DNA of 64,000 nt from Mayamaea pseudoterrestris (GCA_027923505.1 BROI01000023.1:124001-188000); one strand, 5' to 3'. Shown: positions 39,221-63,493, counted from the first letter of the stretch. The notes: generated by a model not told the origin, from the letters alone. Numbers and translations are program-made.

Positions 39221-41931
39221 ATGCTGAAACAGTCTGTCATTGACTACGCCAAAGACCCCGAGGACTCGCTTTTGCGAGACTTGCTCATTGAGGAGCTCAG
39301 GTTTCAGCAACTAGCTTCCGCTCAATCATCGTCTTCTTCAGATGATAGCAGCAAGCAAGACACCAAAGACTCATTCGCAGCAAGCATGTCTGTCAATATA
39401 GAAGAGATTGGATGGATCATTTCAAACTGCGACGAGGATTCCTCCGAAGCAGTTACAGCCCAAGACGAATTTGAGCGATTAAACGTACTGAAGAAGTACT
39501 CGGCCATGGATTTGGACAATGATGAGGCGCTCAAGGCCATGACGACCATGGTGTCGTCCATGCTGGGGCATGAATACAGCTGGGTTTTGCTCATGGATTT
39601 GCGCAAGAGCTGGATTGTTTCGGCTCAAGGACTAGGCGGCATGTCTGAATGTCCTCGTAATCAGTTCTTTCCCTGTGCTCACGTTTTGAGGTCTCAGAAT
39701 CCCTGCCTGGTAGTCAATGACCTTGTAAAGGACCCTCGCTTTGTCAAGAGTCCATTTGCCATCGGACCGTTGGGAGCTCGCTTCTACGCGGCAGCTCCGC
39801 TTATATCACCCGAAGGCTTTCGAATTGGCGTTTTTGGGGTGGCAAGTCGACGGCCTAGCACAATGTCTGCGACTGAGCAAGAATTTTTGACCAATGTTTC
39901 CAACCTTGCCATGCAGCACCTTGTGGACCGTCGGCGACGCTTGGACTTGGAGGAAAATCTTAAAAAGGCAGTAGCATGTACGTCACATGATATCATGACG
40001 CCGCTCATGGGACTGCAGTTGTCATTGTCATCCCTTCGAGAGGATCAGGAGCTCAATAGCGTCGTGTCGGAGTACCATCGCGACCTGCTGACAACGGCAG
40101 ACAATTGCGCTACAACAATGTGTCAGCTGGGGACGACAGCTATGCAAAACATTCATGAAAGTTTGGCAGCGACTGAAGCTGATTCGGCTGGTTTAGGGAC
40201 ATGTTCGCGGGGATCCGAATATGTTTGCCAAGTGGCTGACCTTGTAGATCGACTGCATCAGGTGAGGATAACAGCAGGTTGCGCAAAAAAATGTCGTACA
40301 GAAATTTGGCTCAACAGTTCAATCCCTTCATTCGACAGACTCTCGATCCGATTGAAAAGAACGTCCCACTTATGATCACTGTCGATCCCAGCACTCCGCC
40401 AACGCTTGCTGTATCCGATTTGAAGATCTTCCGCGCCGCGTTGGCCATCCTGTGCTTGGCCTGTGCGCGAACTAGAACAGGCTTCGTCCTCCTGAAAATT
40501 TCCATGGTACATGGCCAAGTTGTTTTTGCTTGTGAGAGTTCCATGCCGGCGCTTGAAAGTAACGAAACGGCTTCGTTCATTGACACCACCAAGAAAAATA
40601 AGGATGATACCATCCCGTGCCTGCTGTTGGCGGCCAAGACCATTTCATCGCTTGGCGGAACGTGCAACTATCGTCCAGGTCAGACGTCCGTATTGTCGTT
40701 TAAAATACCGGGAGCAGATACTCAAACAAGTTCGTGTCTGCGTGGGTTTGAGCTTGCGGCTGCGCGAGGCGATGCGACGACTACCAACGACGTTTTGCAG
40801 ACTACTACGACGCAATCGCCATTACTAAAACGGCCACTTTTGTCCATTGTAAGCGCATCTGCACCATCGCTATTTGACCTTGCTGAAGCTGATCCTACTA
40901 TGCCGCGCAAACGCAAGGTCCTGGTTATTGACGATTCACTAGTGGTCCGCAAATCCTTGCACCGGGCGCTTTCTACTAAGTTTGGGTACGAGGTGACTTT
41001 GGCTGAAGACGGCAAGGAAGGACTTGCTCGATTACAGGAGACTGTCTTTGATTTCGTACTTTGTGATTTTCTGATGCCAGTCATGGACGGCTGGGATTGT
41101 ACACAACAATATCGCCAATGGGAATCCCACCATAGACCTTGGTTTCGCCAATTGATCATTGGGATGAGTGCGCACGCTGGCGACAAGGACGTGCAACGGG
41201 CTAGTCAATTTGGAATGGATGACTACAAATGCAAACCTGTCACCATTAAAGTATTGACTGAACTTAGCGAGGATCTCAAGATAAACCAGATTAAAACGCA
41301 GCTAGATTACCTGCTCCCATTGTTTGGAACGCGGACTACAGCTGTCGCTAACTCACCAGCGAACAAGCGAAAGCGGACAACATCAATATTATGCCTCACA
41401 AGCAATTTGGTCCCTGATAGCTTAAATGCCACGGAAGAAGCAGACAAAGACATGAGAAATATGAAAAACGCGATCGAACTTGGCAAGCCTGTTTGTCTTG
41501 TTTGCCGCAGTTCGTCGGCTGCATCGCCATGGAGTACCATTGCCGTCACGGAGGCCTTCCAGCAACAGGGATGGATGATTGAAAAAGTACAAAGCAGCAA
41601 TGAAGCCATGACCCGGCTGAAGCAGCGGAATTACGACGCTGTTATAGTTGACAGTGAATTGTCACCAGTTCCAGGAGTGGCCTGCATCGCAACCTTTCGT
41701 GAGTGGGAGTCGAGCAATCGAGTTAACCGACAAAAGAATGTGCTGTTGCAATTCCCCGCAAATTCCGCACTGTCTCAAGCCATGAGAGAAAGCGATTCCG
41801 CCATAGTCCAGCCTCCGTCTGGTTTTGACGGAGTTATCGGTGGCCAATCAGTGTGGGCTGACTTCAATGGTGTCGTAGGTAGCCCGGTAGCTGATGGCAT
41901 TGCACAGGTTACAGGCATTGTAATGCGTTAG
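39221..41931 (+). CDS. Hybrid histidine-kinase-like gene copy 2 (GAF-HisKA-degenerate HATPase-REC-REC-like); exons 39221-40261 and 40339-41931
   Basis: Tandem paralogue of copy 1 with the same intron position (LVDRLHQ|TLDPIEK) and an intact frame. Confidence 0.88.
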
Positions 41932-42071: not shown

Positions 42072-42270
42072 AAAGTTGCGGACAGTTGGCATGCTTTATG
42101 CAACGCTCTAATGATGGCAAAGGTGCTGCAATTGGATTCAACGACATGTGATGCTGCCAACATGCTACTACATGCTGGCCGAGAGGACCACACCCATACT
42201 GCTGCTAAATAAACTCATGCATCAGAAAATATGGATTGATGAATAAAGCAGTGATTAAGGAATGAAGTAA
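42072..42270 (-). pseudogene. Diverged relic of the LHC gene 3' end (last codons YFIP* plus downstream region)
   Basis: Aligns by eye with 63498-63685 (e.g. GGTGCTGCAATTGGAT, TGCTACTACATG, AGTGATTAAGGAAT). Confidence 0.8.
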
Positions 42271-42280
42271 CGCACTTGAG

Positions 42281-42952
42281 CACCATGGGGACCATGGGGA
42301 CTCATTGGACATCTGCCCTCTCATATATTCAGGCTACAAGTGAGCCACAAATGCGGTAGCTGCACCATTCGCACCGCATACTAGTCCCCAAGCACAGCCA
42401 GCCATAAATGGATGGAAATGGACCACAGCAGGTAGTGGTGGGAGGCCACACTTTAGCACCATGGGGACCATGGGGACTCATTGGACATCTGCCCTCTCAT
42501 ATATTCAGGCTACAAGTGAGCCACAAATGCGGTAGCTGCACCATTCGCACCGCATACTACGGTAGTCCCCAAGCATAGCCAGCCATAAATGGATGGAAAT
42601 GGACCACAACAGGTAGTGGTGGGAGGCCACACTTTAGCACCACGAGAATCATGGTTACTCATTCAGCATGTGCCCTCCCATATATTACAGGCTACAAGCA
42701 AGCTACAAATGAGGCAGCTGCACCAATCTGACCGCATACTAGTCCCCAAGCATAGCCATGCATAAATGGATGGAATATATACAGCGGGTAGTGCTAGGAG
42801 GCCACATTTTTGCACGACATGGATCATGGATACTCATTCAGCAGTTGCCCTCCCATACATTCCAGGCAACAAGTAAGCTACAAATGAGGCAGCTGCACCA
42901 ATCTGACTGCATACTAGTCCCCAAGCATAGCCGGACATTAATGGATGGAAAT
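42281..42952. repeat. Satellite A, 175-181-bp unit, about 3.8 copies
   Basis: Unit starts at 42281, 42457, 42638 and 42813. Confidence 0.95.
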
Positions 42953-45077
42953 GCCATCACCCTGGATGCTATTGGTGATATTTGGCAGATCCAACAACTT
43001 GTTGGATCTGCGAGCCATGCACCTCAAGAAGCAAGTCCAGCTGCCGGAATGGCCCACAGACCCTGGAATACAACAAACATGCAATTCAACATTGAATGGG
43101 ACTGATAGTCTTGTCATTTTGGGTGTGGAACCCATCACCATGCCAGGAGACTCCGCACATTCAACAAATGGTTGAATGTGCCAGCAGTGCCCCCTTTTTG
43201 GCTACAGGGATCATCAGCATTGCATGCCGAGCCCAACGAACCCTTTCAATTCATGTTTGTTGACATGATGGGCTAGGAATGTGGTTACATGCACCTCAGT
43301 ATCCATCACCATGGATGCTATTGGTGATACTTGGCAGATCCAACAACTTGTTGGATCTGCAAGCCATGCACCTCAGGTGGCAAGTCCAGCTGCCTGAATG
43401 GCTCACAGACTCTAGAATACAACAAACATGCAATTCAACATTGAATGGGACTGATAGTCTTGTCATTTTGGGTGTGGACCCCATCACCATGCCAGGAGAC
43501 TCCACACATTCAACAACAAATGGTTGAATGTGCCAGCAGGGTCCCCTTTTTGGCTACAGGGATCATCAGCGTTGCGTGCCAAGCCCTCCAATCCCTTTCA
43601 ATTCATGTTTGTTGACATGATGGGCTAGGAATGTAATTACATGCACCTCAGTATCCATCACCATGGATGCTACTGGTGATACTTGGAAGATCCAACAACT
43701 TGTTGGATCTGCAAGCCATGCACCTGCCTGAATGGCCCACAGACCCTGGAATACTACAAACATGCAATTTAACATTGAATGGGATTGATAGTCTTGTCAA
43801 TTTTGGGTGTGGAACCCATCACCATGCCAGAAGACTCAGCACATTCAACAAATGGTTGAATGTGCCAGCAGGTTCCCCTTTTTTGCTACACGGATCATCA
43901 GCATTGCGTGCCGAGCCCTCCAATCCCTTTCAATTCATGTTTGATGACATGATGGGATAGGAATGTGGTTACATGCACCTCAGTATCCATCACCATGGAT
44001 GCTATTGGTGATACTTGGCAGATCCAACAACTTGTTGGATCTGCAAGCCATGCACCTCAGGTGGCAAGTCCAGCTGCCTGAATGGCTCACAGACTCTAGA
44101 ATGCAACAAACATGCAATTCAACAATGAATGGGACTGATAGTCTTGTCATTTTGGGTGTGGACCCCATCACCATGCCAGGAGACTCCGCACATTCAACAA
44201 CAAATGGTTGAATGTGCCAGCAGTGCCACCTTTTCGGCTACAGGGACCATCAGCATTGCGTGCCAAGCCCTCCAATCCCTTTCAATTCATGTTTGTTGAC
44301 ATGATGGGCTAGGAATGTAATTACATGCACCTCAGTATCCATCACCATGGATGCTACTGGTGATACTTGGCAGATCCAACAACTTGTTGGATCTGCAAGC
44401 CATGCACCTCAGGTGGCAAGTCCAGCTGCCTGAATGGCCCACAGTTCCTGGAATACTACAAACATGCAATTTAACATTGAATGGGATTGATAGTCTTGTC
44501 AATTTTGGGTGTGGAACCCATCACCATGCCAGAAGACTCCGCACATTCAACAAATGGTTGAATGTGCCAGCAGAGTCCCCTTTTTGGCTACACGGATCAT
44601 CAGCATTGCGTGCCGAGCCCTCCAATCCCTTTCAATTCATGTTTGATGACATGATGGGATAGGAATGTGGTTACATGCACCTCAGTATCCATCACCATGG
44701 ATGCTATTGGTGATACTTGGCAGATCCAACAACTTGTTGGATCTGCGAGCCATGCACCTCAAGTGGCAAGTCCAGCTGCCTGAATGGTCCACAGACCCTG
44801 GAATACAACTAACATGCAATTCAATATTGAATGGGACTGATAGTCTTGTCATTTGGGTGTGGAACCCATCACCATGCCAGGAGACTCCGCACATTCAACA
44901 AATGGTTGAATGTGCCAGCAGTGCCCCCTTTTTGGCTACAGGGATCATCAGCATTGCTTGCTGAGCCCTCCAATCCCTTTTTATTCATGTTTGTTGACAG
45001 GATGGGCTAGGCATGTGGTTGCATGAACCTCAGTATCCATCACCATGGATCTTGTTGGATCTGTGAGCCATGCACCT
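42953..45077. repeat. Satellite B (~349-bp unit), block 1, about 6 monomers
   Basis: The unit GGAATGTGGTTACATGCACCTCAGTATCC... (and its variants) recurs every ~335-352 bp. Confidence 0.98.
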
Positions 45078-48000
45078 TAACACCGTTGACGATTTCGCAG
45101 TCAACGTCTTACCTCCAAAAAGCTCCGATACAGGGTCCTTGGCCACGGTCTGTACAGCTCTTGATGGAGATGGCTCGTCGAATAGTCTTGCGCTCGCCAC
45201 TACACGAATACGACTGCACTCTCGTCGCAAACTAGTAGTTCTATATTGTGAGCTTATCGCTACATCACTACATCGACCACTCGGAAGATCATCCGATCAA
45301 TCCGTTTCTTTCAATCACATTACATCAGTCGTAATCGATCGTTCCATTCATACAACGCATCCACGCGACGGTTGCGCACTTTCTTCATTCACATGTCACA
45401 TACGACAGCTGCGGACTCGACACAAGCTAATTAGGGTTCGGGCACTTGACTTCGCCGCTCTGCGACTTGTCACCTCCCTGCGCTGCTCGTGCAGCCGGCA
45501 TTCTTGTCCTTCACAATCGCACCGCATACTATGCAAAACAATACGGCTAGCAATGGCATCGCATCACAGTACGGAGGTACTTGGCAGATCCGCAATGTTC
45601 TCCTTTCCGTCAATCTTCACAAACTTGGTAATCCCCGCAGCAACTGCCCAACGAACACAGGCAGGCCAAGGAATTGTACTTGGACAACGTCGGACCCGGA
45701 TTGTAGATGTAATCACTGCGGTGTCCGTACATCCAGGCAGACTTCTCCAATGGACGCCCATAGCCATGCGAGCGACGCACGAGAAAAGTGCTGATATCCG
45801 TTTCACTCTTCACGACTCCGATCGACAAGCGCAGTCTCGACTGTAGCCTGGAGTTTGCAATGCCAGTCGACAGGCGTCTGGTTGACAAATGACAAAACTC
45901 CTTCCAATGACTTGCCTGTCACCATGCAATGCATGAGACACGCATCCTCGAAAGTTGATGTTCGTACAGTCACACCCTTTGGCGGTGGGTAGACATCCAA
46001 CATCTCATCAACTCCGTCCTTCCCGTAAACGCTGCGCTCCCAATCTTGTTCCTCCATGGTGCCGAAGTGCTCCTCGTTGGCTGGCCACTTCGTGCGGAAA
46101 CGGATTGCTGCATCCGGTAACTCTTGCAAATATCCACAGACTCGCTTCACCCGCTGCAGGTGTCCCTTGCGCGGCTCCACACGGAATCGCGACAGACTCA
46201 CAACTGCTACGGCAATGTCAAATCGTCCCAAAGTAATCGCCCACTGAAGTGCTCCGACTAGAAACTGGTAAATCTTCTTCTCTTGGTCGTTCAGTAGCTC
46301 GCTTTGGTCAAGTTCTGGATGATCGTCTTTGTTGATTGGTGATGAGTACTTCTTCGGAGGCCCTTCAAACAAACGCTCGTACTGCGCCAAGAGTTTCGCA
46401 ACGTAGGTCTTGGCCGACCAGTAAAGAGTTCCATCAGGGTCTCGTCCAAAGTCACCGCCGAGATGATACTCGGGATGTCCAACACCTTTGAGCTTAAACT
46501 TGTACTTCTCCTCTAGCATCTTGAAGAACGCTGCTGGATCGTCTGAAATATTCAACAGATCGTCGACCCATACACAGAGGTAGTCGTAGCTGTCGCCGGC
46601 GTCCTTGATCCACAGATCGGAATCGCAATAGGATGGCTTCCACCCTTCCGCAAGTAGGGCGTCGGCTAAGCGTTCGTGAAATCGTGCTCCGCTCGTTCGC
46701 AATCCCCTACAGCGCCTTGGCGATGACCAGGATGTGTCTTCGCGCTCCCCGAACTCGGGCTCCAACGATACCTTCTCCTTGGTGAACGCTTCGAGATAAG
46801 CATTCCCAATGTCGGCGACCGTGCACTTCTTGCCGTTCGCTTCTCCAATGACGAGAGCTAGACGCATTGCCTTCAATGAGATAACACTGGAGTAGGCATC
46901 GTCGTTGTCTTTCGTCATGTGGCCGCCTGCAACAAGACGTGCCTTGTATCGCAAATCGTGCTTGACATCGTACACAAAATAAGCTCGGATCTTTTGGTAA
47001 CCAGTTGGTGGTGCTGTGGTGGAACTCGGACCGAGATCTTGAAACGTCTCGTACTTGTCCAGGTTTGCCAGCTCCACGCCTTCCGCATCCGTCCACTTCG
47101 TGTGCCCTGCAGCTTCCTGCAAACGTCGCGCTTCCTTCCAATCTTGGGGTACTTGGACTCCAAACTTGTAGCGCGGTCCGTTCTTCTGCTGCTCCATTCG
47201 GGCGGTCGCCACCTTGCGCGCAACCTTCTTGGCGTTCCGGGCCCATCGATTCAGCGATGTCCATCCGTCCTTGTCGAGAAGATTATGCTTTTGCGCGTAG
47301 GCTGCCACCGATACTTTGTCGCTTTCGATCATCGCGTTGAGAGGCTCCCAAGTCTTGGATCCATCATCCCATTGTACAAGGACGTTCCACTTGGAGTGCT
47401 TCCAGTTCCTCGACTTGCTCGTCAGCGGACCCTGATGGTCTAGAATCTCCTTGAAGAACCATTTACACTCAGGATTCGCCATGTCTTGGTTCACTTCGGC
47501 CTCGTAGAGATCGGAAACCTCGACTTAGGACATGACTTCGTCTGCTTCGCCGTTACCAAGCTTCAGCATCATTTTAATGTTCTGATGATTCTGGGCGTCG
47601 CGGTTGTTCAGCTTGCTCTCGCTACACTTCGGTCTCCTCTTGATGCCACGACGATTGTGGGATTTTCAGGAGGTTCCAAAATGGGGGTGTACGCCATCGG
47701 TTGCGGGTCTTGGATTTGATCAGCATGTAGGGAAACGGGCCCAAAAGATTGTGTAGTAGTTTGGCGTCATTGTAGTTCTCTTCCTTGCTGGACCACTGGA
47801 TAAGCCAATTGACGGAGACTTGGCGTAACCCGACGAAAATTGCATTCGTCTTCGGCCGAACGAGATCCAACTCGGCGCCATCCCATCGAGGTACTCCAAC
47901 TCTGCAATGCACGCTGAGGCATTGGTCGATGTGTTTGACAAGAGTCTCGGTGTCTTGCAGGTATACCTCGAAACGCGCTAAAAACCTTGAACACTGATAC

Positions 48001-48950
48001 TGATACGATTGGGTCGAGTGCAGCTGGTGGCTTGAACTCGTCCTAGCCAAGTCACTGCATGCGGTTCTTGAAGGCCCGCCAGTATGAGCAGAACTCGATC
48101 GTTCTTGAGTCCGCATTTTCAAATGCGTCGTGTTGTTTGCCAAGTGAAGTCACGTGTGCTGTACCCGAATGTGGTCTGGTCTTTCTCCAGGTTTTGCCAT
48201 TGCGCAGTCGTCTGATGTTGCTCGTGAATCCAACTCATGAGCTTGCGCAATCGGCTTGTTCGTATCGTCGACCAATGGTACTGGTTCTTAATGTTCGTCG
48301 CGTCTTGTTCCGACAACTCGGTCATCGCCTCCGCAGTCGTGAGTTCTTCGGATTCGAAGCATACTGCGGTAGGGTCGTTTGGATCCCAAGTAGCGGATGC
48401 TGCGAGCCACGGAATGTCAAAGACTTTACCGACGGCACGCTTGTAGGTCGTTACATCAATCTCGAAATCCGTTGGTTGATCAGAGGAATGACTTGCTGCA
48501 GATGAATTTGTCACGATAGCTCCTCGCTGGGTCTCGAAGCACTGAAGTGTTAATCTAACACCGTTGACGATTTCGCAGTCAACGTCTTACCTCCAATAAG
48601 CTCCGATACAGGGTCCTTGGCCACGGTCTGTACAGCTCTTGATGGAGATGGCTCGTTGAATAGTCTTGCGCTCGCCACTACACGAATATGACTGCACTCT
48701 CGTCGCAAACTAGTAGTTCTATATTGTGAGCTTATCGCTACATCGCTACATCGACCACTCGGAAGATCATCCGATCAATCCGTTTCTTTCAATCACATTA
48801 CATCAGTCGTAATCGATCGTTCCATTCATACAACGCATCCACGCGACGGTTGCACACTTTCTTCATTCACATGTCACATACGACAGCTGCGGACTCGACA
48901 CAAGCTAATTAGGGTTCGGGCTCTTGACTTCGCTGCTCTGCGACTTGTCA
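45078..48950 (-). mobile_element. Ty1/Copia (CoDi-like) LTR retrotransposon 1, internally deleted; LTRs 45078-45472 and 48556-48950; TSD CACCT
   Basis: 395-bp LTRs with 7 differences seen, a PPT-like AGGGAGG and gag remnants at 48119-48514. ORF 45803-47494 carries chromo-like, RT (KARLVAGGH, WVDD) and RNase H regions. No protease or integrase core is seen. Confidence 0.95.
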
Positions 48951-51900
48951 CACCTCAGGTGGCAAGTCCAGCTGCCTGAATGGCCCACAGACCCTGGAAT
49001 ACAACAAACATGCAATTTAACAGTGAATGGGACTGATAGTCTTGTCATTTTGGGTGTGGAACCCATCACCATGCCAGGAGACTCCGCACATTCAACAAAT
49101 GATTGAATGTGCCAGCAGGGTCCCCTTTTTGGATACAGGGATTATCAGCATTGCGTGTGGAGCCCTCCAAACCCTTTCAATTCATGTTTGTTGACATGAT
49201 GGGCTAGGAATGTGGTTACATGCACCTCAGTATCCATCACCATGGATGTTATCAGTGATACTTGGCAGATCCAACAACTTGTTGGATCTGCGAGCCATGC
49301 ACCTCAAGTGGCATGTCCAGCTGCCTGAATGGCCCACAGACACTGGAATACAACAAACATGCAATTCAACATTGAATGGGACTGATAGTCCTGTCATTTT
49401 GGGTGCGGAACCCATCACCATGCCAGGAGACTCCACAATATTAACAAATGGTTGAATGTGCCAGCAGTGCCCCCTTTTTGGCTACAGGGATCATCAGCAT
49501 TGCCTGCGGAGCCCACCAATCCCTTTCAATGCATGTTTGTTGACATGATGGGTTAGGAATGTGGTTACATGCACCTCAGTATCCATCACCATGGATGCTA
49601 TTGGTGATACTTGGCAGATCCAACAACTTGTTGGATCTGCAAGCCATGCACCTCAGGTGGCAAGTCCAGCTGCCTGAATGGCTCATAGACTCTAGAATAC
49701 AACAAACATGCAATTCATCATTGAATGGGACTGATAGTCTTGTCATTTTGGGTGTGGACCCCATCACCATGCCAGGAGACTCCGCACATTCAACAAATGG
49801 TTGAATGTGCCAGCAGTGCCACCTTTTCGGCTACAGGGATCATCAGCATTGCGTGCCAAGCCCTCCAATCCCTTTCAATTCATGTTTGTTGACATGATGG
49901 GCTAGGAATGTAATTACATGCACCTCAGTATCCATCACCATGGATGCTACTAGTGATACTTGGCAGATCCAACAACTTGTTGGATCTGCAAGCCATGCAC
50001 CTCAGGTGGCAAGTCCAGCTGCCTGAATGGCCCACAGACCCTGGAATACTACAAACATGCAATTTAACATTGAATGGGATTGATAGTCTTGTCAATTTTG
50101 GGTGTGGAACCCATCACCATGCCAGAAGACTCTGCACATTCAACAAATGGTTGAATGTGCCAGCAGGGTCCCCTTTTTGGCTACAGGGACCATCAGCATT
50201 GCGTGCCGAGCCCTCCAATCCCTTTCAATTCATGTTTGATGACATGATGGGATAGGAATGTGGTAACATGCACCTCAGTATCCATCACCATGGATGCTAT
50301 TGGTGATACTTGGCAGATCCAACAACTTGTTGGATCTGCGAGCCATGCACCTCAAGTGGCAAGTCCAGCTGCCTGAATGGCCCACAGACCCTGGAATACA
50401 ACTAACATGCAATTCAATATTGAATGGGACTGATAGTCTTGTCATTTGGGTGTGGAACCCATCACCATGTCAGGAGACTCCGCACATTCAACAAATGGTT
50501 AAATGTGCCAGCAGTGCCCCCTTTTTGGCTACAGGGATCATCAGCATTGCATGCTGAGCCCTCCAATCCCCTTTTATTCATGTTTGTTGACAGGATGGGC
50601 TAGGAATGTGGTTGCATGCACCTCAGTACCCATCACCATGGATCTTGTTGGATCTGTGAGCCATGCACCTCAGCACCCCAGGTGGCAAGTCCAGCTGCCT
50701 GAATGGCCCACAGACCCTGGAATACAGCAAACATGCAATTTAACATTGAATGGGACTGATAGTCTTGTCAATTTGGGTGTGGAACCCATCACCATGCCAG
50801 GAGACTCCAAACATTCAACAAATGGTTGAATGTGCCAGCAGTGCCCCTTTTTTGGATACAGGGATCATCAGCATTGCCCCCTTTTTGGCTACAGGGATAT
50901 CAGCATTGCGTGCCAAGCCCTCCAATCCCTTTCAATTCAATTTTGTTGACATGATGGGCTAGGAATGTAGTTACATGCACCTCAGTATCCATCACCATGG
51001 ATGCTATTGGTGATACTTGGCAGATCCAACAACTTGTTGGATCTGCAAGCCATGAACCTCAGGTGGCAAGTCCAGCTGCCGGAATGGCCCACAGACCCTG
51101 GAATACAACAAACATGCAATTCAACATTGAATAGGACTGATAGTCTTGTCATTTTGGGTCTGGAACCCATCACCATGCCAGGAGACTCCGCACATTCAAC
51201 AAATGGTTGAATGTGCCAGCAGTGCCCCCTTTGTGGCTACAGGGATCATCAGCATTGCGTGCCGAGCCCTCCAATCCCTTTCAATTCATGTTTGTTGACA
51301 TGATGGGCTAGGAATGTGGTTACGTGCACCTCAGTATCCATCACCATGGATGCTATTGGTGACACTTGGCAGATCCAACAACTTGTTGGATCTGCGAGCC
51401 ATGCACCTCAGGTGGCAAGTCCAGCTGCCTGAATGGCCCACAGACCCTGGAATACAACAAACATGCAATTCAACAATGAATGGGGCTGATAGTCTTGTCA
51501 TGTTGGGTGTGGAACCCATCACCATGCCAGGAGACACCGCACAATCAACAAATGGTTGAATGTGCCAGCAGGGTCCCCTTTTTGGCTACAGGGATCATCA
51601 GCAATGCGTGCCGAGCCCTCCAATCCCTTTCAATTAATGTTTGTTGACATGATGGGCTAGGAATGTGGTTACATGCACCTCAGTATTCATCACCATGGAT
51701 GCTATTAGTGATACTTGGCAGATCCAACAACTTGTTGGATCTTCAAGCCATGCACCTCAGGTGGCAAGTCCAGCTGCCTGAATGGCCCACAGACCCTGGA
51801 ATACTACAAACATGCAATTTAACATTGAATGGGACTGATAGTCTTGTCATTTTGGGTGTGGAACCCATCTCCATGCCAGGAGACTCCGCACATTTAACAA

Positions 51901-53048
51901 ATGGTTGAATGTGCCAGCAGGTTCCCCTTTTTTGCTACAGGAATCATCAGCATTGCGTGCCGAGCCCTCCAATCCCTTTCAATTCATGTTTGTTGACATG
52001 ATGATCTAGGAATGTGGTTACATGCACCTCAGTATCCATCACCATGGATGCTATTGGTGATACTTGGCAGATCCAACAACTTGTTGGATCTGCAAGCCAT
52101 GCACCTCAAGTGGCAAGTCCAGCTGCCTGAATGGCCCACAGACCCTGGAATACAAGAAAGATGCAATTCAACATTGATTGTGACTGATAGTCTTGTCATT
52201 TTGGGTGTGGAACCCATCACCATGCTAGGAGACTCCGCACATTCAACAAATGGTTATATGTGCCAACAGGGTCCCCTTTTTGGCTACAGGGATCATCAGC
52301 ATTGCATGCCAAGCCCTCCAATCCCTTTCAATTCATGTTTGTTAACATGATGGGCTAGGAATGTGGTTACATGCACCTCAGTATCCATCACCATGGATGC
52401 TATTGGTGATACTTGGCAGATCCAACAACTTGTTGGATCTGCCAGCCATGCACCTCAAGTGGCATGTCCAGCTGCCTGAATGGTCCACAGACCCTGGAAT
52501 ACAACTAACATGCAATTCAATATTGAATGGGACTGATAGTCTTGTCATTTGGGTGTGGAACCCATCACCATGCCAGGAGACTCAGCACATTCAACAAATG
52601 GTTGAATGTGCCAGCAGTGCCCCTTTTTGGCTACAGGGATCATCACCATTGCGTGCCGAGCCCTCCAATCCCTTTCAATTCATGTTTGTTGACATGATGG
52701 GCTAGGAATGGGGTTGCATGCACCTCAGTATCCATCACCATGGATCTTGTTGGATCTGTGAGCCATGCACCTCAGCACCTCAGGTGGCAAGTCCAGCTGC
52801 CTGAATGGCCCACAGACCCTGGAATACAACAAACATGCAATTTAACATTGAATGGGACTGATAGTCTTGTCATTTTGGGTGTGGAACCCATCACCATGCC
52901 AGGAGACTCTGCACATTCAACAAATGGTTGAATGTGCCAGCAGTGCCCCCTTTTTGGCTACAGGGATCATCAGCATTGCCTGCGGAGCCCACCAATCCCT
53001 TTCAATTCATGTTTGTTGACATGATGGGCTAGGAATGTGGTTACATGC
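48951..53048. repeat. Satellite B block 2, about 12 monomers
   Basis: Same unit, resuming exactly at the TSD. Confidence 0.98.
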
Positions 53049-56000
53049 TGTCACAATGATGATCTAGTCCAGTCGCTTGACTGAACCTAGACGTCGCCGG
53101 GGGCGCACGAGCTTAGTACTCGAACCTCCATTGCGGTACCAGAAAAGACATCTACTCACAACTACGTCATTGAAAAATTGCATGTGTGCCAGCTGCAGGC
53201 ACGATTAAACAAGATTAGTATTCACTATTGTGAATGGTCTTGAAAGAGCCATCTGATCAAGCGCTCTTTCTTGACCGAACGTAACTCATCTCACTTTCTA
53301 GAGAACTGCTTAATCAACTAACGTTTTGTAGGATAAGACCCCTGTAGGATAACCAAAGTAAAGGACTGATCATCCCACTCACTTGGCAACCGACTACAGA
53401 GGGTGAGGAATCGTTGCAGCCGTACGAACTGGAACTGCATCGTGTCAGATCACACAGTCTTGGTCTTTACAATCAACTCTCTCGGGCGCTGGTGACGACC
53501 ACTCCCGTCGTTTCGTTGCACACTACATTGGCAGTGGACATCCCTCGTTCATTTCCTGTCCGAGGCTTCAATTTACACTAGTCCGGCAGACAAAGGGATT
53601 GAAGACCGAGTCGAGTTGCAAGCATCGCTCGGATAGAATCAACTTCCTTGATTATTCTTGCGGTATATATTTATCCCGTACCAATCAACCAACAACATGA
53701 CCGTCGTCGAAGAAGATCCTCCCGGTGGACCCAATGTCATGCAAGATGACGCGGAAGACAACTCACTCGCTGTCGGATTGAAAAGCATTTACAAGCTGAA
53801 GACCGTCAACAACGACAAGTTCATGAAACTTCCAGTCATCGTCACCATCAAGTCACTTCTCCCAGAAGGACGCCTACTCACGGAGCCATTCCTAATGCTG
53901 ACCGTCAAGGACATTGAGTTGGTACTGAAGGAATCCAAACGCACATCACGGTTATTCAAACCATCACCCGCCTTCATCAATGGGCATCGGAAGAGTGTGA
54001 ACTCAAGGAATGGGTGACGCTCATGTTCGCTGCACTCATTCGTGTGACTGAATCGGCCAAAGAGACCCTATTCCAAAGCGACTTGAGTCGGATTCAACGA
54101 GTCGGCTCATCGGACGTTCAAGAGAAGTCCGAGGCGGAGAAGTGCAAAGCTCGCGTCCGAGTCGACACCAAAGCATACACCAAGTTCATAAACGAGTACA
54201 AATTCCATCAATGGTGGCTCAAGACGTTCGCAATGGCCAAGAACCAAGGCATCGAGCGAGTCTTCGATCTGGACTTCAAACCGGCAACGCTTTCGCCCAA
54301 AGATCTCGAGGTATTCAAAGCGCAAGAAGCCACAGCATTCAACATCATCACGTCATACTGCAAAGTTGCCAACTGCATCCCGATCATTCGTTGCCACAAG
54401 GACAGGTCGGCCCACGAGTGCTTCAAGGAAATGCACAAGATGTACTTGACGGGCAAGAACACCGAGCGCGCAGCGCAGCGAGCCGAGTCGAGAGTTCGTG
54501 ACATGAAACTGACGAACGACCACGGCAGCACGTACACTGCATGGTTCACTCAATGGCAGAATGCCTTGCTCAATTACGAAGATTACACCGGCGAAACAGT
54601 CCCCGATGCGACGCGCAAGAAGTGGTTGTCCGAGTTGGTTCACTGGAACGACGCCTTTCGCCAAGAAATCAGTTCGGCGAGTCGTATCCTCAACGCGCAA
54701 GGTCAAGACCAAAGCTTCAACAACTGGTACAAGCAGCTCATCGAGTTCGCTCGCAATACCGATGACATCAAGTCGGCGCGCAAACGCCAAATGAAGATCC
54801 ACCAATCCATCCAACAAGCAAGTACTCCACCGACTGGAGGCACTCCACCAACTAGCGGCAATACTCCAAGTAGCGGCCAAGGCGGAAACGGTCATGGAAA
54901 TGGCAGTGGATGCGGAACCGGTCGTGGTTCTGGACGCGGTGGTGGACGCGGTGGCCGAGGTAACTTCGGACGAGGTGGTGGATGCGGACAGTGCACCAAT
55001 TTCTCTGGGGCATCGAACCGTTGAGTCGAGCCGGATGTATGGTTCTCTTGGATGGAGGAGCAGCGTGAAGCTCACAAGGCAGAAACTCACCAAATCCGAG
55101 AAGCGGAATGTGCGCGCCTGCAGCTGAACGCAAACCAAGCCAACATGAACAACACTAATACACCACCAACTCCACAGATTGAACTTCCACCAACGAATAC
55201 GATGGTGATGTCAACCATGTCAGCGATTAATCAGCCTACAGTCGGAACTACACCAGCACGTGGAACCGCCATGCTCGCATTTCAGTCTCAGCAACAAGGT
55301 TCAATCGCTCAAGGAAGCCAGCCATCTACTCCACCAGTGTATCAAGCACGAGTCGGCAACGTTACATACAACATGTATCGTGCCAATGCAACCAACGTCA
55401 TGCATCGTTCTACAAACCATGTCGCTACACATAACGTCTCGTACGCAGATGCGCTTATGGGTATGAATACTCCGGCAACTGAAGGACCACACGCATCACA
55501 GTTCCATGTTACTCGTGCAATCACGTCTCAAAGCCCATCCATGATGGATCGCGGTGCCAATGATTCGATTGCTGGTAAGGACATGATTTGCTTGGATCAA
55601 TTGATGACTCAGTTTGCCAACATTACCGTAATCGACAATCACATGATGCAAGGACTACCCATCGGAACATTCGCCGCCAAGATCTGGATGACGGAAGGGT
55701 ACGTCATTGGCATTTTCTACCAGTACGCCGACGGAGGAACCGACGCGGCCATCCATTCGGTCGTTCAGCTCGAGGACTTCGGAAACAAGGTATTCGACAA
55801 GGCAAGCGCACTTGGCGGACGGCAGCTCATGATTACACCCAAAGGAGCATTGATTCCATTCACGGTCCAGAACGGTTTGGTCCATTTGAAGATGCATCAT
55901 TTCACCAACGCCGAGTTTGACACGTTGCCACACGTCGTCATGACAGCGACACGCCTTGGGATCCGTCAAAGTACGATGGAGACCTTAATGACGATTCGAT

Positions 56001-59000
56001 CCAAATGGAAATTGAAGCCGCGACGGACGATCATGAAACACCAACACTACTAGTCAACAACACCCAAGTCAACGGAAATGCGCAAGATGAATATCCCGAA
56101 GACCTTTCAGTCAAAACACTCAACGTCGTCTCATGGAACGGACTCAAAACCCACGAGTGGGAGCACTTTAGCAACGAGTTGGACCCTATGCAGGTCAAAA
56201 CCGAGGCTCCATCCGAGCGCATTGCCGACATTGTACCCAACGACGCTTCTTACAATACAAATCCACAACAGGATGACATTTCACTACCCTCACTACTCTC
56301 ACGTGGAACCATATCGACATCCAGATCAAGCCATGCTCAGAACCCCAACGACGCAACGTTCGAATACGACAACACTGCCGGGGAAATGTACGATCCGTAC
56401 GAGCTGCTGATCAATGCCGCAATAGTAGAAGCTGGAGGCAATCCATTTTCTGGACTAGCCGGCCGACCGGCATGCACTGTGGTTCCTACGCGACCAGATT
56501 ACCAAATGCTTCGTCCCAACTTTGGATTTCTACCCACTGATTGTATCAAGGAGACTCTCAAGAACACTACTCAATTCTACCGCGCTGAGCAACGTTTCCC
56601 TCAGCGACGCCATTTGCGTACTCATTTCCCGGGTGCAAATGTTCGTGGACTACCTGAAGAAGTTGCCATGGACACACAATTCTCCGACACACCCGCACTC
56701 AACGATGGTATTCCTGGACATGCCGGATGCCAAGCAGCGCAACTCTACGTCTGTATGCAGAGCAGATTGGTTTGCGTCTTGAACAAGGGGCAAGTTCTGT
56801 TGACGCTCATGCAGTTTATCAATGATTGCGGTGTTCCACTTGGTCTGATCTCAGATGGAGCCAAGGAAGAAAACAGCCTAGCGATTCGAGAAATCAAATG
56901 CCAGTTTATGATCCGTAAGCACTGGGTCAGCAAACTCAAAATCACAAGCTCAAAACCATGGACGCAGCCAACCATCACAACATCAAGTTCCTACTCAAAA
57001 TCAGCAAAAAGAAGCTGAAGAAGTCATAGACTACATCCGACTCTGCGAATTGTATCTGAAGGACCAAGCAGCGATGGTAAACGTTCCTGAACACCACTGG
57101 ACGATTAAAGCAATCCTGTCGCACAAAGGACCACTCACAAAGCAATCCGCCGGATGGAAAGGCTCCATGTACAACATCAAAGTCGTGTGGGAAGACAATT
57201 CAACGACTTGGGAGCCATTGAATGCTTTAGCACGCGATGACATCATTTCCTGCGCTCGCTACGCCAAGGCAAACAGACTACTCAACAAGAAAGGCTGGAA
57301 GTTCCTACGTGACGCAGCCCGACGCGCACGTATCGCTCGTCGAACCGTAAACCAAGCCAAGCAACAACGCAGCATTTGACACAAGTTCAGCGTCAAGGTA
57401 CCACATGATCCAAAGGAAGCTCAAAAGTTCCAAGAAGAACTCCGGCATACCAAATGGACCGACGCGGAGAAGGTAGAAGGTAGAGCTGTAAAGCCTGTTC
57501 GAATACACCTTCATTGATCTCGGATTGAATGCCACCCTCCCGAAGGCTATCAAAAGATTCGCACTATCTGGGTCTATGACTGCAAGCAAGACTTTCGTCA
57601 CAAGGCTCGGATGGTTGCTGGTGGACACCGTACAGATCCTGTCAAGGACTCATACTCGAGCATCATCTCACTTGAATCACTGCGCCTAGCCCTGGCAATA
57701 GGGGAGTTGAATGGACTCACTCCCATGGTAGGCAACATCGGAATTGCTTACCTCAAAGCCAAAACCAAAGAAAAGATTTACTTCATCACTGGGCCTGAGT
57801 TTGGCGACTTGGAAGGCCACACACTCATCATCTACAAAGCACTTTACGGCCTACGCACAAGCGGAGCACGATTCCATGAGCGGCTCGCAGACGCGCTACG
57901 AGCGGAAGGCTTCAAAGCCTCGTACGCCGATCCAGACATTTGGATTCGTGATGCTGGCCATTGTTACAAATACATTTGCACTTGTGTTGATGGCCTTATG
58001 GCAATCATGATTAACCCGGGCGCATTCTACGACATTCTTTGCAACAAGTACAAGTTCAAGCTCAAGGGCGTTGGGTGCCCAGAGTACCATCTAGGCGGCG
58101 ACTTCGGACGTGACCCTGACAGAATATTATTCTGGGGCGCCAAGACCTACATCACCAAGCTTCTAGCCAACTACGAGCGTACATTCAACGGACCACCACC
58201 AAAGTACAGCTCTCCACTTGACTCTCACCACCACCCGGAACTTGACCAGACATCCCTTTTAGGGGAGTCGGACATCAAGATCTACCAATCGTTTGTCGGA
58301 GCCCTTCAGTGGGTGATCACCCTTGGCCAATTTGACATCTGCAGTGCCACCGCCTGCCTGTCACGCTTCCGTGGACAGCCTCGCATTGGACACCTCGACT
58401 GAGTCAAGCATGTATGCAGCTACCTCCGCAAGTTTCCTGAGGCAGCCATCCGCTTTCGCACCCAGTGGCCGCAGAATGAAATCATCTTCAGTGACTCACC
58501 AACCTATGACTGGCAACAAACCGTCTACGACAACCCCAAGGAAGAGGTCCTTTCACTCTGGCCCAAACCAAAAGGGCAAGACAGTTCGCCTTACTACCCT
58601 CAAAGATGCCAACCTGATGCATTGCAAAGTCACCGGCAAAGCATGCACTGGAATCCTTCACTTCATTCAGCAGACTCCGTTCAAGTGGTTTGCCAAACTT
58701 CAAGATACCATCAAACATGCGACCTTCGGCTCTGAACTCATGAGCGGGCGCGTTGCAACCGACCATATCCTAGGCATACGCACGTCACTCATGGCAATGG
58801 GTGTTCCCATTGAGTCCTCTTCATGGCTACTCGGTGATTACCAATCAGTCATCACGCAGTGTACAGTGCCTACATCCACACTCACCAAGCGCCACAATGT
58901 ACTCGCATACCATTGTATCCGTTGGTGCGTAGCAGCCGGAATTATCAAGTTTGTCAAGATTGCCGGCAAGGAAAACGCTTCCGATGCACTTACCAAGTAC

Positions 59001-59567
59001 CTACCCTACATCGACGCATGGCCCCTACTCAAACCATTACTGTTCTGGTGTGGCAAAACCTTGGATCCTGGAGAACTCGAATTCTACCTTATGGACCCTC
59101 TCAAGGGGAGCCAACTCCAGGGGAGCTCATTGAGCTTACACCTGTCCTGGCACACCTACAAGGGGAGTGTCACAATAATGATCTAGTCCAGTCGCTTGAC
59201 GCGAACCTAGACGTCACCGGGGGCGCACGAGCTTAGTACTCGAACCTCCATTGCGGTACCAGAAAAGACATCTACTCACAACTACGTCATTGAAAAATTG
59301 CATGTGTGCCAGCCGCAGGCACGATTAAACAAGATTAGTATTCACTATCGTGAATGGTTTTGAAAGAGCCATCTGATCAATCGCTCTTTCTTGACCAAAC
59401 GTAACTCATCTCACTTTCTAGAGAACTGCTTAATCAACTAGCATTTTGTAGGATAAGACCCCTGTAGGATAAACCAAGGTAAAGGACTGATCATCCCGGT
59501 CACTTGGAAACCACTAAAGAGGGTGAGGAATCGTTGCAGCTGTACGAACTGGAACTGCATCGTGTCA
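53049..59567 (+). mobile_element. Ty1/Copia (CoDi-like) LTR retrotransposon 2, near full-length but degenerate; LTRs 53049-53447 and 59168-59567; TSD CATGC
   Basis: TG..CA LTRs about 95% identical and PPT AAGGGGAG. The order is gag (53697-55024), protease-like DRGAN, integrase fragment (VAMDTQFSDTPA..ISDGAKEE), chromo-like domain, RT and RNase H, with stops and frameshifts. Confidence 0.96.
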
Positions 59568-60084
59568 CATGCACCTCAGTATCCATCACCATGGATGCTA
59601 TTGGTGATACTTGGCAGATCCATCAACTTGTTGGATCTGCAAGCCATGCACCTCAGGTGGCAAGTCCAGCTGCCTGAATGGCCCACAGACCCTGGAATAC
59701 AACAAACATGCAATTCAACATTGAATGGGACTGATAGTCTTGTCATTTTGGGTGTGGAACCCATCACCATGCCAGGAGACTCCGCACATTCAACAAATAG
59801 TTGAATGTGCCAGCAGTGCCCCCTTTTTGGCTACAGGGATCATAAGTATTGCGTGCCGAGACCTCCAATCCCTTTCAATTCATGTTTGTTGACATGATGG
59901 GCTAGGAATGTGGTTACATGCACCTCAGTATCCATCACCATGGATGCTATTGGTAATACTTGCCAGATCCAACAACTTGTTGGATCTGCAAGCCATGCAC
60001 CTCAGGTGGCAAGTCCAGCTGCCTGAATGGCCCACAGACACTGGAATACAACAAACATGCATTTTGACATTGATTGGGACTGAT
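59568..60084. repeat. Satellite B block 3, about 1.5 monomers
   Basis: Same unit. Confidence 0.95.
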
Positions 60085-60089
60085 CAAGC

Positions 60090-60522
60090 TGTGTTTTGCA
60101 GCTACATTCCTGCTGAAAATCCAAGCAGTAATTTGCTTCATCATTCCTGCCAGATTTCCAAGCGGCAATTTGCTTAATCATTCCAGCTGGAACTGCAAGC
60201 GGTGTTTTGTGGCTACATTCCTGCTGAAATTCCAAGCAGTAATTTGCTTCATCATTCCGCCAGAATTCCAAGCGGCAATTTATGTCCACATTCCTGCTGA
60301 AATTCCAAGCAGTAATTTGCTTCATCATTCCTGCCAGAATTCCAAGCGGCAATTTGCTTTCACATTCCAGCTGTAACTTCAAACAGTGTTTTGCGTCCAC
60401 AACAGGTAAGAATCTGTTTTGCGTCCACATTCCTGCTGAAATTCCAAGCAGTAATTTGCTTCATCATTCCTGCCAGAATTCCAAGCGGCAATTTGCTTTC
60501 ACATTCCAGCTGTAACTTCAAA
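60090..60522. repeat. Minisatellite C, 37-bp unit (CATTCCTGCTGAAATTCCAAGCAGTAATTTGCTTCAT) with a trimeric superstructure
   Basis: CATTCC at 60105, 60142, 60179, 60216, 60253, 60289, 60326, 60363 and onward. Confidence 0.92.
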
Positions 60523-61469
60523 CATGTTTTGCTTGAATCATTGGGTATTTGGGTGGCCAGGGCATGGGGCGTTTGACAGGAAAGAATCTGCAACTTGTGG
60601 TGTTGGACATACCCACAGTGGAGGCCGTACCCATGGTGTCAGCCTCCAGGCAGTCCTTTTTGCACCATTTGAGACTCTGCACCTGTCAATGGCATACCCG
60701 GAGCATGTTCTGCCTGACTCATTGGGTATTTGGGTGGCCAGGGCATGGGGCGTTTGACAGGGAAGAATCTGCAACTTGTGGTGTTGGCCACACCCACAGT
60801 GGAGGTCGTACCCATGGTGTCCAGCCTCCAGGCAGTCCTTTTTGCACCATTTGATACTCTGCACCTGTCAATGGCATACCCTGAGCATGTTTTGCCTGAC
60901 TCATTGGGTATTTTGGTGGCCAGGGCATGGGGTGTTTGACAGGGAAGAATCTGCAACTTGTGGTGTTGGCCAGCCGAACCCATGGTGTCCAGCCTCCAGG
61001 CAGTCCATTTTGCACCATTTAAGACTCTGCACCTGTCAATGGCATACCCTGGACATGTTTTGCCTGACTCATTGGGTATTTGGGTGACAAGGAATAATCT
61101 GCAACTTGTGGTGTTGGCCATACCCACAGTGGAGGCCGTACCCATGGTGTCAGCCTCCAGGCAGTCCTTTTTGCACTATTTGAGACTCTGCACCTGTCAA
61201 TGGCATACCCTGAGCATGTTCTGCCTGACTCATTGGGTATTTGGGTGGCCAGGGCATGGGGCGTTTGACAGGGAAGAATCTGCAACTTGTGGTGTTGGCC
61301 ACACCCACAGTGGAGGTGCCCAGCCTCCAGGCAGTCCTTTTTGCACCATTTGAGACTCTGCACCTGTCAATGGCATACCCTGGACTTGTTTTGCCTGACT
61401 CATTGGGTATTTTTGGGTGGCCAGGGCATGGGGCGTTTGACAGGGAAGAATCTGCAACTTGTGGTGTTG
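60523..61469. repeat. Satellite D, ~181-bp unit (some monomers with deletions), about 5.5 copies
   Basis: Unit starts at ~60523, 60704, 60886, 61054, 61215 and 61385. Confidence 0.95.
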
Positions 61470-63493
61470 GGTGTCGAGCCCTCCTATCCCTTTCAATTCA
61501 TGTTTGTTGACATGATGGGCTAGGAATGTGGTTTCATGCACCTCAGTATCCATCACCATGGATGCTATTGGTGATACTTGGCAGATCCAACAACTTGTTG
61601 GATCTGCAAGCCATGCACCTCAGGTGGCAAGTCCAGCTGCCTGAATGGCACACAGACCCTGGAATACAACAAACATGCAATTCAATATTGAATGGGACTG
61701 ATAGTCTTGTCATTTTGGGTGTGGAACCCATCACCATGCCAGGAGACTCCGCACATTCAACAAATGGTTGAATGTGCCAGCAGTGCCCCCTTTTTGGCTA
61801 CAGGGATCATCAGCATTGCATGCCGAGCCCTCCATCCCTTTCAATTCATGTTTGTTGACATGATGGGCTAGGAATGTGGTTACATGCACCTCAGTATCCA
61901 TCTCCATGGATGCTATTGGTGATACTTGGCAGATCCAACAATTTATTGGATCTGCGAGCCATGCACCTCAGGTGGCATGTCCAGCTGCCTGAATGGCCCA
62001 CAGACCCTTGAATACAACAAACATGCAATTTAACATTGAATGGGACTGATAGTCTTGTCATTTTGGGTGTGGAACCCATCACCATGCCAGGAGACTCCGC
62101 ACATTCAACAAATGGTTGAATGTGCCAGCAGGGTCCCCTTTTTGGCTACAGGAATCATCAGCATTGCGTGCCGAGCCCTCCAATCCCTTTCATTTCATGT
62201 TTGTTGACATGATGGGCTAGGAATGTGGTTACATGCACCTCAGTATCCATCACCATGGATGCTATTAGTGATACTTGGCAGATCCAAAAACTTGTTGGAT
62301 CTGCGAGCCATGCACCTCAGGTGGCAAGTCCAGCTGCCTGAATGGCCCACAGACCCTGGAATACAACAAACATGCAATTCAACAATGAATGGGGCTGATA
62401 GTCTTGTCATGTTGGGTGTGGAACCCATCACCATGCCAGGAGGCAACACCGCACAATCAACAAATGGTTGAATGTGCCAACAGTGCCCCCTTTTTGGCTA
62501 CAGGGATCATCAGCAATGCGTGCCGAGCCCTCCAATCCCTTTCAATTCATGTTTGTTGACATGATGGGCTAGGAATGTGGTTACATGCACCTCAGTATCC
62601 ATCACCATGGATGCTATTGGTGATACGTGGCAGATCCAACAACTTGTTGGATCTGTGAGCCATGCACCTCAGGTGGCAAGTCCAGCTGCCTGAATGGGCC
62701 ACAGACCCTGGAATACAACAAACATGCAATTCAACATTGAATGGGACTGATAGTCTTGTCATTTTGGGTGTGGAACCCATCACCATGCCAGGAGACACCG
62801 CACATTCAACAAATGGTTGAATGTGCCAGCAGGGTCCCCTTTTTGGCTACAGGGATCATCAGCATTGCGTGCCAAGCCCTCCAATCCCTTTCAATTCATG
62901 TTTGTTGACATGATGGGCTTGGAATGTGGTTACATGCACCTCAGTATCCATCACCATGGATGCTATTGGTGATACTTGGCAGATCCAACAACTTGTTGGA
63001 TCTGCGAGCCATGCACCTCAAGTGGCAAGTCTAGCTGCCTGAATGGCCCACAGACCCTGGAATACAACAAACATGCAATTCAACATTGAATGGGACTGAT
63101 AGTCTTGTCATTTTGGGTGTGGAACCCATCACCATGCCAGGAGACTCCGCACCTTTAACAAATTGTTGAATGTGCCAGCAGTGCCCCTTTTTGGCTACAG
63201 GGATCATCACCATTGCGTGCCGAGCCCTCCAATCCCTTTCAATTCATGTTTGTTGACATGATGGGCTAGGAATGTGGTTACATGCACCTCAGTATCCATC
63301 ACCATGGATGCTATTGGTGATACTTGGCAGATCCAACAACTTGTTGGATCTGCCAACCATGCACCTCAAGTGGCAAGTCCAGCTGCCTGAATGGCCCACA
63401 GACCCTGGAATACAACTAACATGCAATTCAATATTGAATGGGACTGGTAGTTTTGTCATTTTGGGTGTGAAACCCATCACCATGCCAGGAGAC
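61470..63493. repeat. Satellite B block 4, about 6 monomers
   Basis: Same unit; the array ends abruptly at ...CCAGGAGAC. Confidence 0.97.

Follow-up and report, generated by a model that had tools for sequence, protein, structure and literature searches.

Independent insertions of two CoDi-branch Copia retrotransposons in one 349-bp satellite block of a diatom, and a chromodomain-like module that may bear on their placement

The stretch of DNA analyzed here, hereafter the window, comprises 64,000 nucleotides of Mayamaea pseudoterrestris (GCA_027923505.1, BROI01000023.1:124001-188000). Positions 1-42,000 are dense with long host-gene open reading frames (ORFs), and tandem repeats, delimited with Tandem Repeats Finder (TRF), fill the right third as a block at 42273-63493. 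Two long terminal repeat (LTR) retrotransposons, designated E1 and E2, lie inside the 349-bp satellite of this block. Each possesses an LTR pair, a 5-bp target-site duplication (TSD), the reverse transcriptase (RT) domain RVT_2 and a purine tract, which identify both as Ty1/Copia elements, and within Copia both fall into the CoDi branch known from diatoms. They are independent insertions of two different Copia families, E2 being the older, and the TSDs of both fall within copies of a single 12-bp satellite motif, CATGCACCTCAG. The coordinates of all features are collected in Table 1, together with the observed/expected (o/e) ratios of CpG.

Table 1. Features of the satellite block and its two Copia elements, in window coordinates, with CpG o/e ratios
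Feature	Position	Strand	CpG o/e	Description
Genes, 42 kb	1-42000		1.12	
175-bp satellite	42273-42953	+	0.28	left edge of block; TRF
349-bp satellite			0.14	
349-bp satellite, part 1	42954-45077	+		stops at monomer position 86, the E1 site; TRF, monomer blastn
E1 TSD CACCT	45073-45077 (left), 48951-48955 (right)			read at junctions
E1	45078-48950	-	1.16	3.9-kb internally deleted, non-autonomous Copia
E1 3' LTR	45078-45472	-		395 bp; element strand TGACAAG...GGTGTTA
E1 ORF with RVT_2	45803-47524	-		573 aa
E1 chromodomain-like module	47201-47470	-		W-F-F-K-E-I-L ... W-D-D-G-S-K-T-W-E-P-L; one stop codon upstream
E1 5' LTR	48556-48950	-		LTR pair
349-bp satellite, part 2	48951-53048	+		11.8 copies, between E1 and E2
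E2 TSD CATGC	53044-53048 (left), 59568-59572 (right)			read at junctions
E2	53049-59567	+	0.96	6.5-kb decayed, near full-length Copia
E2 5' LTR	53049-53447	+		TGTCAC...GTGTCA
E2 ORF P0121	56912-57379	+		155 aa; predicted chromodomain-like fold at residues ~61-125, nt ~57092-57286
E2 RVT_2 frame	57518-58402	+		Pfam
E2 3' LTR	59169-59567	+		purine tract AAGGGGAG before it
349-bp satellite, part 3	59568-60084	+		monomer blastn
37/74-bp and 182-bp satellites	60085-61471	+	0.20	break up the 349-bp array
349-bp satellite, part 4	61472-63493	+		TRF, monomer blastn
Reference target context	61535-61623	+		motif copy A 61535-61546, two palindromes, motif copy B 61612-61623

The LTRs of E1 are 395 bp long, 98.2% identical to each other and end in TG...TA rather than TG...CA, and a purine-rich tract, GCAGGGAGG, is located just inside the 3' LTR. 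The match of E1 to Pfam RVT_2 (E=2.1e-16) is above the curated cut-off. The element retains the N-terminus of gag, the chromodomain-like module described below, RT and RNase H, and it matches only residues 4-237 and 1208-1913 of a 1,968-aa relative (P0001), so that the part corresponding to residues of about 238-1207, with protease and integrase, is gone. Lacking both activities, E1 must have depended for its movement on integrase supplied in trans by an autonomous relative. An open antisense frame that runs across the E1 LTR had no protein match at E<=1e-5.

The LTRs of E2 are about 400 bp long, 95.3% identical and end in TG...CA, and its RVT_2 match (E=1.6e-18) also lies above the curated cut-off. 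The coding region is collinear with that of long relatives but is split over several frames, and about 200 aa of the linker from integrase core to RT that is present in relatives are missing; at the position of this gap (56935/56945), contigs of two other sequencing runs carry at least 255 unlike letters. The order of integrase before RT was taken from relatives mapped collinearly on E2, the integrase part being absent from E1. The relative P0097 displayed an rve match at residues 591-651 (E=0.00047; 20.8 bits, below the curated value of 32.6) and RVT_2 at residues 1096-1307, and a profile of 40 relatives matched retroviral integrase cores at profile positions 845-947. E1 and E2 share 64% identity in their internal parts over a 1.1-kb stretch of RT, and their LTRs gave no mutual blastn match at E<=1e-5. 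This result and the different degrees of LTR identity bear out the view of a first-pass annotation of this DNA, in which the LTRs were described as unrelated, of different ages and the product of independent insertions.

The insertion junctions were read directly in the sequence. On the left of E1, the flank ...GCCATGCACCT is followed by the element sequence TAACACC..., and on the right the element ends with ...CTTGTCA before the flank CACCTCAGGTGG. For E2, the left flank ...GGTTACATGC passes into TGTCACAATG..., and the right end of the element, ...CGTGTCA, is followed by CATGCACCTCAG. Excision of each element with one copy of its TSD restored the satellite consensus, apart from a single mismatch where E1 had been inserted; the E2 site matched throughout. 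The satellite register is also continuous over both elements: part 1 of the array stops at monomer position 86 and part 2 begins at 82 across E1, and across E2 part 2 breaks off at position 5 of the next monomer and part 3 begins at 1, where the numbering of the monomer starts at the motif copy at 61535. No microhomology between the LTR ends and their targets was seen by eye at the four junctions. In monomer coordinates the TSDs occupy positions 82-86 (E1) and 1-5 (E2); their centers are 81 bp apart, and the target sites are 77-81 bp apart. The positions given in the first-pass annotation for CACCT and CATGC proved to be exact, and its placement of both TSDs inside CATGCACCTCAG was likewise confirmed, with two copies of the motif in each 349-bp monomer, at positions 1-12 and 78-89, beside a hairpin region.

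The motif occurs exactly 38 times in the window, compared to 0.02 occurrences expected, and its two copies flank a pair of palindromes in the monomer. For the 65 bp that separate the copies, folding as single-stranded DNA gave two hairpins with a free energy (dG) of -25.9 kcal/mol (z -4.3), and none of 200 shuffled sequences folded as well. One conceivable explanation for the insertion sites is that these palindromes extrude as cruciforms and that distorted DNA at their base attracts integration, and both insertions are indeed no more than 20 bp from the folding segment. However, the monomer struck by E1 is a 30-bp deletion variant, in which positions 30-59 are absent, and with them the left arm of the palindrome that has the 12-bp stem; its motif copies are only 47 bp apart, and copy A is mismatched. 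The deletion is probably older than the insertion of E1, because two other monomers carry the same variant. A single-strand fold, in addition, says little about duplex DNA in chromatin, and guidance by cruciforms appears highly improbable to us.

The deletion of about 30 bp is common to three monomers in total (45022-45077, 50615-50974 and 52717-53044), which are spaced five and six monomers apart and hint at a loose higher-order repeat. E1 lies within one of these variant monomers, and E2 directly follows another.

How much weight the shared motif can bear was evaluated with chance figures that assume uniform insertion along the monomer. A TSD falls wholly inside the motif at 16 of the 349 positions, and both TSDs would do so by chance with a probability of 0.0021 if the motif had been named beforehand. 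Corrected for its choice after the fact, as the chance that two TSDs share any identical 12-mer, the probability is about 0.044. The first-pass annotation had held that such a double hit is unlikely by chance, while pointing out that n=2 and that the motif was noticed post hoc. The coincidence of the two TSDs in one motif is real, and weakly suggestive. It may reflect either a local hot spot set by the phase of the chromatin, or coincidence.

The first of these options can be formulated as phased nucleosomes that offer two preferred sites about 80 bp apart, or as a protein bound to CATGCACCTCAG that recruits the integration complex. The location of both TSDs in the two motif copies agrees with this, as does the distance between their centers, and the repeat periods throughout the block are nucleosome-sized, 349 bp being about 2 x 175 bp and the neighboring satellites having periods of 175 and 182 bp. 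A comparable pattern is found in yeast Ty1, likewise a member of the Copia superfamily, where two hot spots per positioned nucleosome, about 70 bp apart and at the H2A/H2B interface, are described (Baller and Mularoni 2012, as reviewed in PMC3545840), compared to 77-81 bp here. However, there are only two insertions, a crude score of dinucleotide periodicity was not above that of shuffled monomers, and the best predicted dyads (around 294-325 and 155-195) were not midway between the motif copies. The altered spacing and the mismatched copy A in the target monomer of E1 also speak against a hot spot of this kind. Moreover, the TSD of E1 is shifted by 4 bp in the motif relative to that of E2, the elements are oppositely oriented, and the TSDs share no sequence in register once the orientation of the elements is corrected for; the offset and the lack of a shared sequence argue against base recognition by the integrase. 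Considering both sides, a hot spot set by the motif or by nucleosome phase is unlikely in our estimation. Ty1 differs further in that it is recruited by genes transcribed by RNA polymerase III (Pol III), whereas no tRNA or Rfam family was found in or near the satellite. Targeting to Pol III or other RNA genes was rejected as an explanation, as no tRNA was detected and the two Rfam matches, both below threshold, lay in the E1 LTRs.

The base composition of the block provides information about the chromatin in which the elements reside. The CpG ratios of the satellites are far below that of the genes (Table 1), TpG and CpA are raised to 1.4-2.0 in them, and GpC is normal. E1 and E2, which are younger than the satellite, are barely depleted of CpG. 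When the copies of the two elements in the window were compared to related contigs of another sequencing run (X1), they had A or T opposite a G or C of those contigs at 243 sites, and the reverse at 83; among 40 sites listed, former CpGs accounted for 18 of 23 such transitions. Altogether, the depletion of CpG and the changes from CpG to TpG suggest that CpGs of this locus have undergone methylation and deamination, and, judged from these mutational traces, the satellite block is probably methylated heterochromatin. The methylation-type signature has a sharp boundary, separating the block at 42273-63493 from the genes at 1-42000.

Between the core of the integrase and RT, the polyproteins of this lineage have a module of about 65 conserved aa, which was retained in both E1 and E2 (in the latter in P0121). 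In all 40 aligned relatives, 11 columns are invariant within about 60 residues, against a mean identity of 35% overall, following the pattern W-x-F-K-x-I-x-x-H-x-G-P-L ... Y-K-G-S-x-Y-N-V-L-V-x-W-E-D-G-S-x-T-x-E-P-L ... D-D-P-V-x-x-A-x-Y-A ... L-L-D-x-P-G-W-K. The module was found in 1,075 cluster representatives at E<=0.001, followed by RVT_2 where the proteins were long enough. The RT of the relatives begins near residue 1,400, which is several hundred residues later than in ordinary Copia elements. In a tentative mapping to HP1, an invariant W (W1289 in P0001) and a mostly aromatic position at the start of strand 1 may correspond to two positions of the aromatic cage for methyl-lysine, and the third canonical position is G, N or D.

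P0121 was modeled with AlphaFold2 on an alignment of the 40 relatives; the mean predicted local distance difference test score (pLDDT) of the model was 81, with values >85 at residues of about 61-150 and >95 at about 71-140. DSSP assigned strands to residues 65-72, 88-93 and 98-102 and a helix to residues 103-120, that is, a three-stranded antiparallel sheet with a C-terminal helix, as in a chromodomain. Structural alignment of the model to 48,161 PDB representatives returned chromodomains or chromoshadow domains as nearly all of the top 30 neighbors, including those of Chd1, HP1, Rhino, Chp1, Oxpecker, CHD4, cpSRP43, SUV39H1 and Polycomb and the chromodomain of GEN1. The top 50 Foldseek matches were mostly chromodomains as well, with target TM-scores of 0.65-0.70 and none at E<=0.001. 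A search for look-alikes by protein language model returned three Chromo clusters at 0.76, a score that serves as a lead only, and the BFVD search gave nothing useful, with one 'Chromo domain-containing protein' at rank 37 (E=0.56). The modeled structure thus assigns the module of this lineage a chromodomain-like fold, at the level of the fold only. With such a fold, the module could plausibly steer integration towards heterochromatin like that of the CpG-depleted satellite.

A second conserved block was observed upstream of the module, at about residues 1186-1250 of P0001, with the pattern D-G-Q-x-x-R-A-x-V-x-R-K-I ... N-H-Q-x-I-K-F-L ... E-E-I-I-x-Y-x-E-L-S-D. Most of it is missing from E2, and the tandem chromodomains of CHD1 were among the Foldseek matches.

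The identity of the host and of the lineage was examined through protein relatives. The nearest named relatives of the AP-3 beta protein encoded in the window were those of raphid pennate diatoms (Fistulifera solaris, 52%; Nitzschia inconspicua and Seminavis robusta, 49%), and its nearest relative overall was 58% identical. In a search with the RT frame of E1, 1,063 of the 8,000 proteins scored matched at E<=1e-10; the 120 highest-ranking relatives were mostly 1,800-2,100 aa long and encoded on environmental contigs of 6-8 kb, including marine ones, and one was from the diatom Mayamaea. The CoDi families were defined by Maumus et al. 2009 (PMC2806351). In the tabulated features of Llorens et al. 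2009 (PMC2774666), the CoDi-A members CoDi2.4, 3.1, 4.1, 4.3, 4.4, 4.5 and 7.1 are entered as 'Chromo Yes' and without a CCHC array, and CoDi5 and CoDi6 as 'Chromo No' with one CCHC array. The same source describes a putative C-terminal chromodomain on CoDi-A integrases, naming these elements 'Copia chromoviruses', and considers that this chromodomain was probably captured independently (PMC2774666). The CCHC knuckle CX2CX4HX4C was found in none of the 40 aligned relatives, which fits clade CoDi-A, and on these sequence features E1 and E2 are likely members of it. They resemble CoDi-A in the diatom host, the Copia gene order, a gag without CCHC and a chromodomain-like module at the C-terminus of the integrase.

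Besides targeting of any kind, the insertions may have landed at random and survived where no gene was harmed, with the shared 12-bp motif being coincidental. The 349-bp satellite is the only sizeable gene-free DNA of the window, making up 16% of it outside the transposable elements, and the satellite in the block totals only about 10.8 kb, with genes on both sides. Two random hits would both fall in the 349-bp satellite with a probability of 0.027 before selection, and selection against insertions into the crowded ORFs of 1-42,000 would raise this value greatly. The post hoc value of 0.044 is, in addition, not small for one pair picked from 64 kb, and the 4-bp offset of the TSDs and their lack of common sequence in register are as expected under random landing. 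On the other hand, the module was kept in 40 of 40 relatives at the C-terminus of the integrase, the usual place of targeting devices, and a probability of 0.044 is still under even odds. The absence of targeting at any scale is possible, though we lean against it.

The reading that we rank first, and to which we assign a roughly balanced degree of belief, is that chromodomain-guided or heterochromatin-tolerated insertion brought both elements into the gene-free DNA of the window. Two CoDi Copia elements would have inserted independently into one 349-bp satellite block, where the chromodomain-like module may anchor the integration complex on repeats of this kind by holding it to their modified nucleosomes, as chromodomains are said to do in Ty3/Gypsy chromoviruses. 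Insertions in the block would also persist, since the surrounding region is very gene-dense and offers no other DNA free of genes. A more specific proposal is that Copia chromoviruses integrate with nucleosome-level precision, the two sites about 80 bp apart being the CATGCACCTCAG copies on a phased, methylated satellite that serves as a landing pad for several families; we regard it as decidedly unlikely. The satellite-targeting Copia lineage proposed in the first-pass annotation thus remains plausible in view of the module and the CpG-depleted target, but its guidance by the motif depends on two insertions and a probability of about 0.044.

Several observations weigh against chromodomain-guided insertion and need to be considered in concert with the evidence above. 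Survival bias alone can explain why both insertions lie in the satellite, because the satellite is the only sizeable gene-free DNA in the window, and the regional preference is drawn from two insertions in this one window, whose TSDs, as described, have no sequence in common in register. The Pfam chromodomain (PF00385) was detected in none of five whole relatives (E<=0.01), three module pieces (E<=10) or 31 representatives (E<=0.01), and profile and single-sequence searches of the PDB returned no chromodomain. In the tentative alignment to HP1, only two of the three canonical positions of the aromatic cage would be aromatic in the module. Among 79 related metagenome loci, which were mostly <9 kb, no tandem repeat with a period >=20 was found beside the elements, most contigs being too short to include flanks. 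A clean LTR pair with a TSD was present in only one of these loci (L078, element at 1220-7581), a second (L025) having no matching TSD, and the flanks of L078 were not depleted of CpG (o/e 1.05-1.10).

The element in L078 is a distant relative whose LTRs end in TGACAA...TTATTA (TG..TA, as in E1) and whose TSD is GGCAC. It adjoins a Gypsy integrase fragment and the RT of another Copia element, which fits the picture of insertion into repeats as a single case. Copies related to E1 and E2, about 94-97% identical to them, were also recovered from other sequencing runs, and among the contigs listed from these runs none bridged a junction between LTR and satellite or had a loose end at an LTR end. 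Six sequencing runs contained at most 0.33 of the words sampled, and the comparison covered four of them. Exact scans with a 26-mer of the satellite found no locus in viral or in metagenome contigs, and a 24-mer from the start of the E2 LTR found none in viral contigs.

Comparison to known systems helps to place the proposed mechanism. In Ty3/Gypsy chromoviruses, the integrase chromodomain directs integration to heterochromatin or centromeres, and chromodomain-guided integration is, to our knowledge, known experimentally only for this group. The elements studied here are like these chromoviruses (MAGGY, Tf1 and plant CRM) in having a module with a chromodomain-like fold at the C-terminus of the integrase and copies in repeat-rich, presumably silent DNA. 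They differ in belonging to another superfamily, with the integrase encoded ahead of RT, and in a module too divergent for Pfam. Yeast Ty5, a Copia element, is directed by a targeting domain at the C-terminus of its integrase that binds Sir4 heterochromatin. It is similar in being a Copia element aimed at silent chromatin by a short device at the C-terminus of the integrase, and different in that this device is a motif of six residues rather than the folded chromodomain-like module found here. A further difference of the diatom Copia elements from the Gypsy chromoviruses is the lack of a GPY/F module, noted by Llorens et al. (PMC2774666), where a role of the chromodomain in integration into chromatin is also cited.

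Tal1, a centrophilic ALE4 Copia element of Arabidopsis lyrata, likewise inserts into tandem arrays, and the C-terminal region of its integrase decides where, according to the findings summarized by Tsukahara et al. (2025, PMC11735389). Unlike the elements of the window, Tal1 follows CENH3 chromatin, a single K/R residue rather than a chromodomain being what matters, and its pattern was established from thousands of de novo insertions (PMC11735389), compared to two old insertions here. Regarding CoDi elements, the literature searched held nothing about integration sites or satellites, including term look-ups in PMC8147415 and in a 2025 preprint. The search returned no report that combines a 349-bp satellite, Copia and a centromere, and by title or abstract nothing relevant was found among publications on diatom centromeres, satellites and LTR elements.

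Other features of the window were noted during the analysis. The host genes in 1-42,000 include AP-3 beta (a single frame of 1,462 codons), DnaJ, dynamitin and two genes with GAF, histidine kinase and receiver domains. The latter two, at 35874-38620 and 39203-41931, are tandem paralogues of the hybrid histidine kinase type, in which a GAF, a HisKA and a receiver domain are combined, and they are located directly upstream of the satellite block. The block itself is enclosed by a pair of direct repeats (42087-42269 and 63512-63684), about 185 bp long and 77% identical, that have no further copy in the window. The block may have originated within a duplicated segment, or it may form the inner part of a larger repeat unit or element. 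Derivation of a satellite from a transposon was rejected, as no satellite resembled E1, E2, the genic region or any of the 79 metagenome loci with related elements. Arrays of 42-bp tandem repeats are present in inverted orientation at 9642-9815 and 15787-15960 (174 nt, 83% complementary), flanking about 6 kb of host-like genes, namely an RRM protein, ribosomal protein L34 and a 797-aa frame without a family, and no transposase was recognised.

A putative chromodomain on the integrases of diatom Copia elements was reported in 2009, and in the literature searched it was not tied to any pattern of integration. The locus described here is a test case for such a link, as it combines two families of one lineage, a satellite with a methylation signature and target sites read to the exact base. 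If the preference held true genome-wide, two retrotransposon superfamilies would have reached the same heterochromatin-seeking strategy independently, and it would provide a handle on how compact diatom genomes confine their most active transposons. If it did not, the two insertions would represent the ordinary survival of transposons in gene-free repeats.

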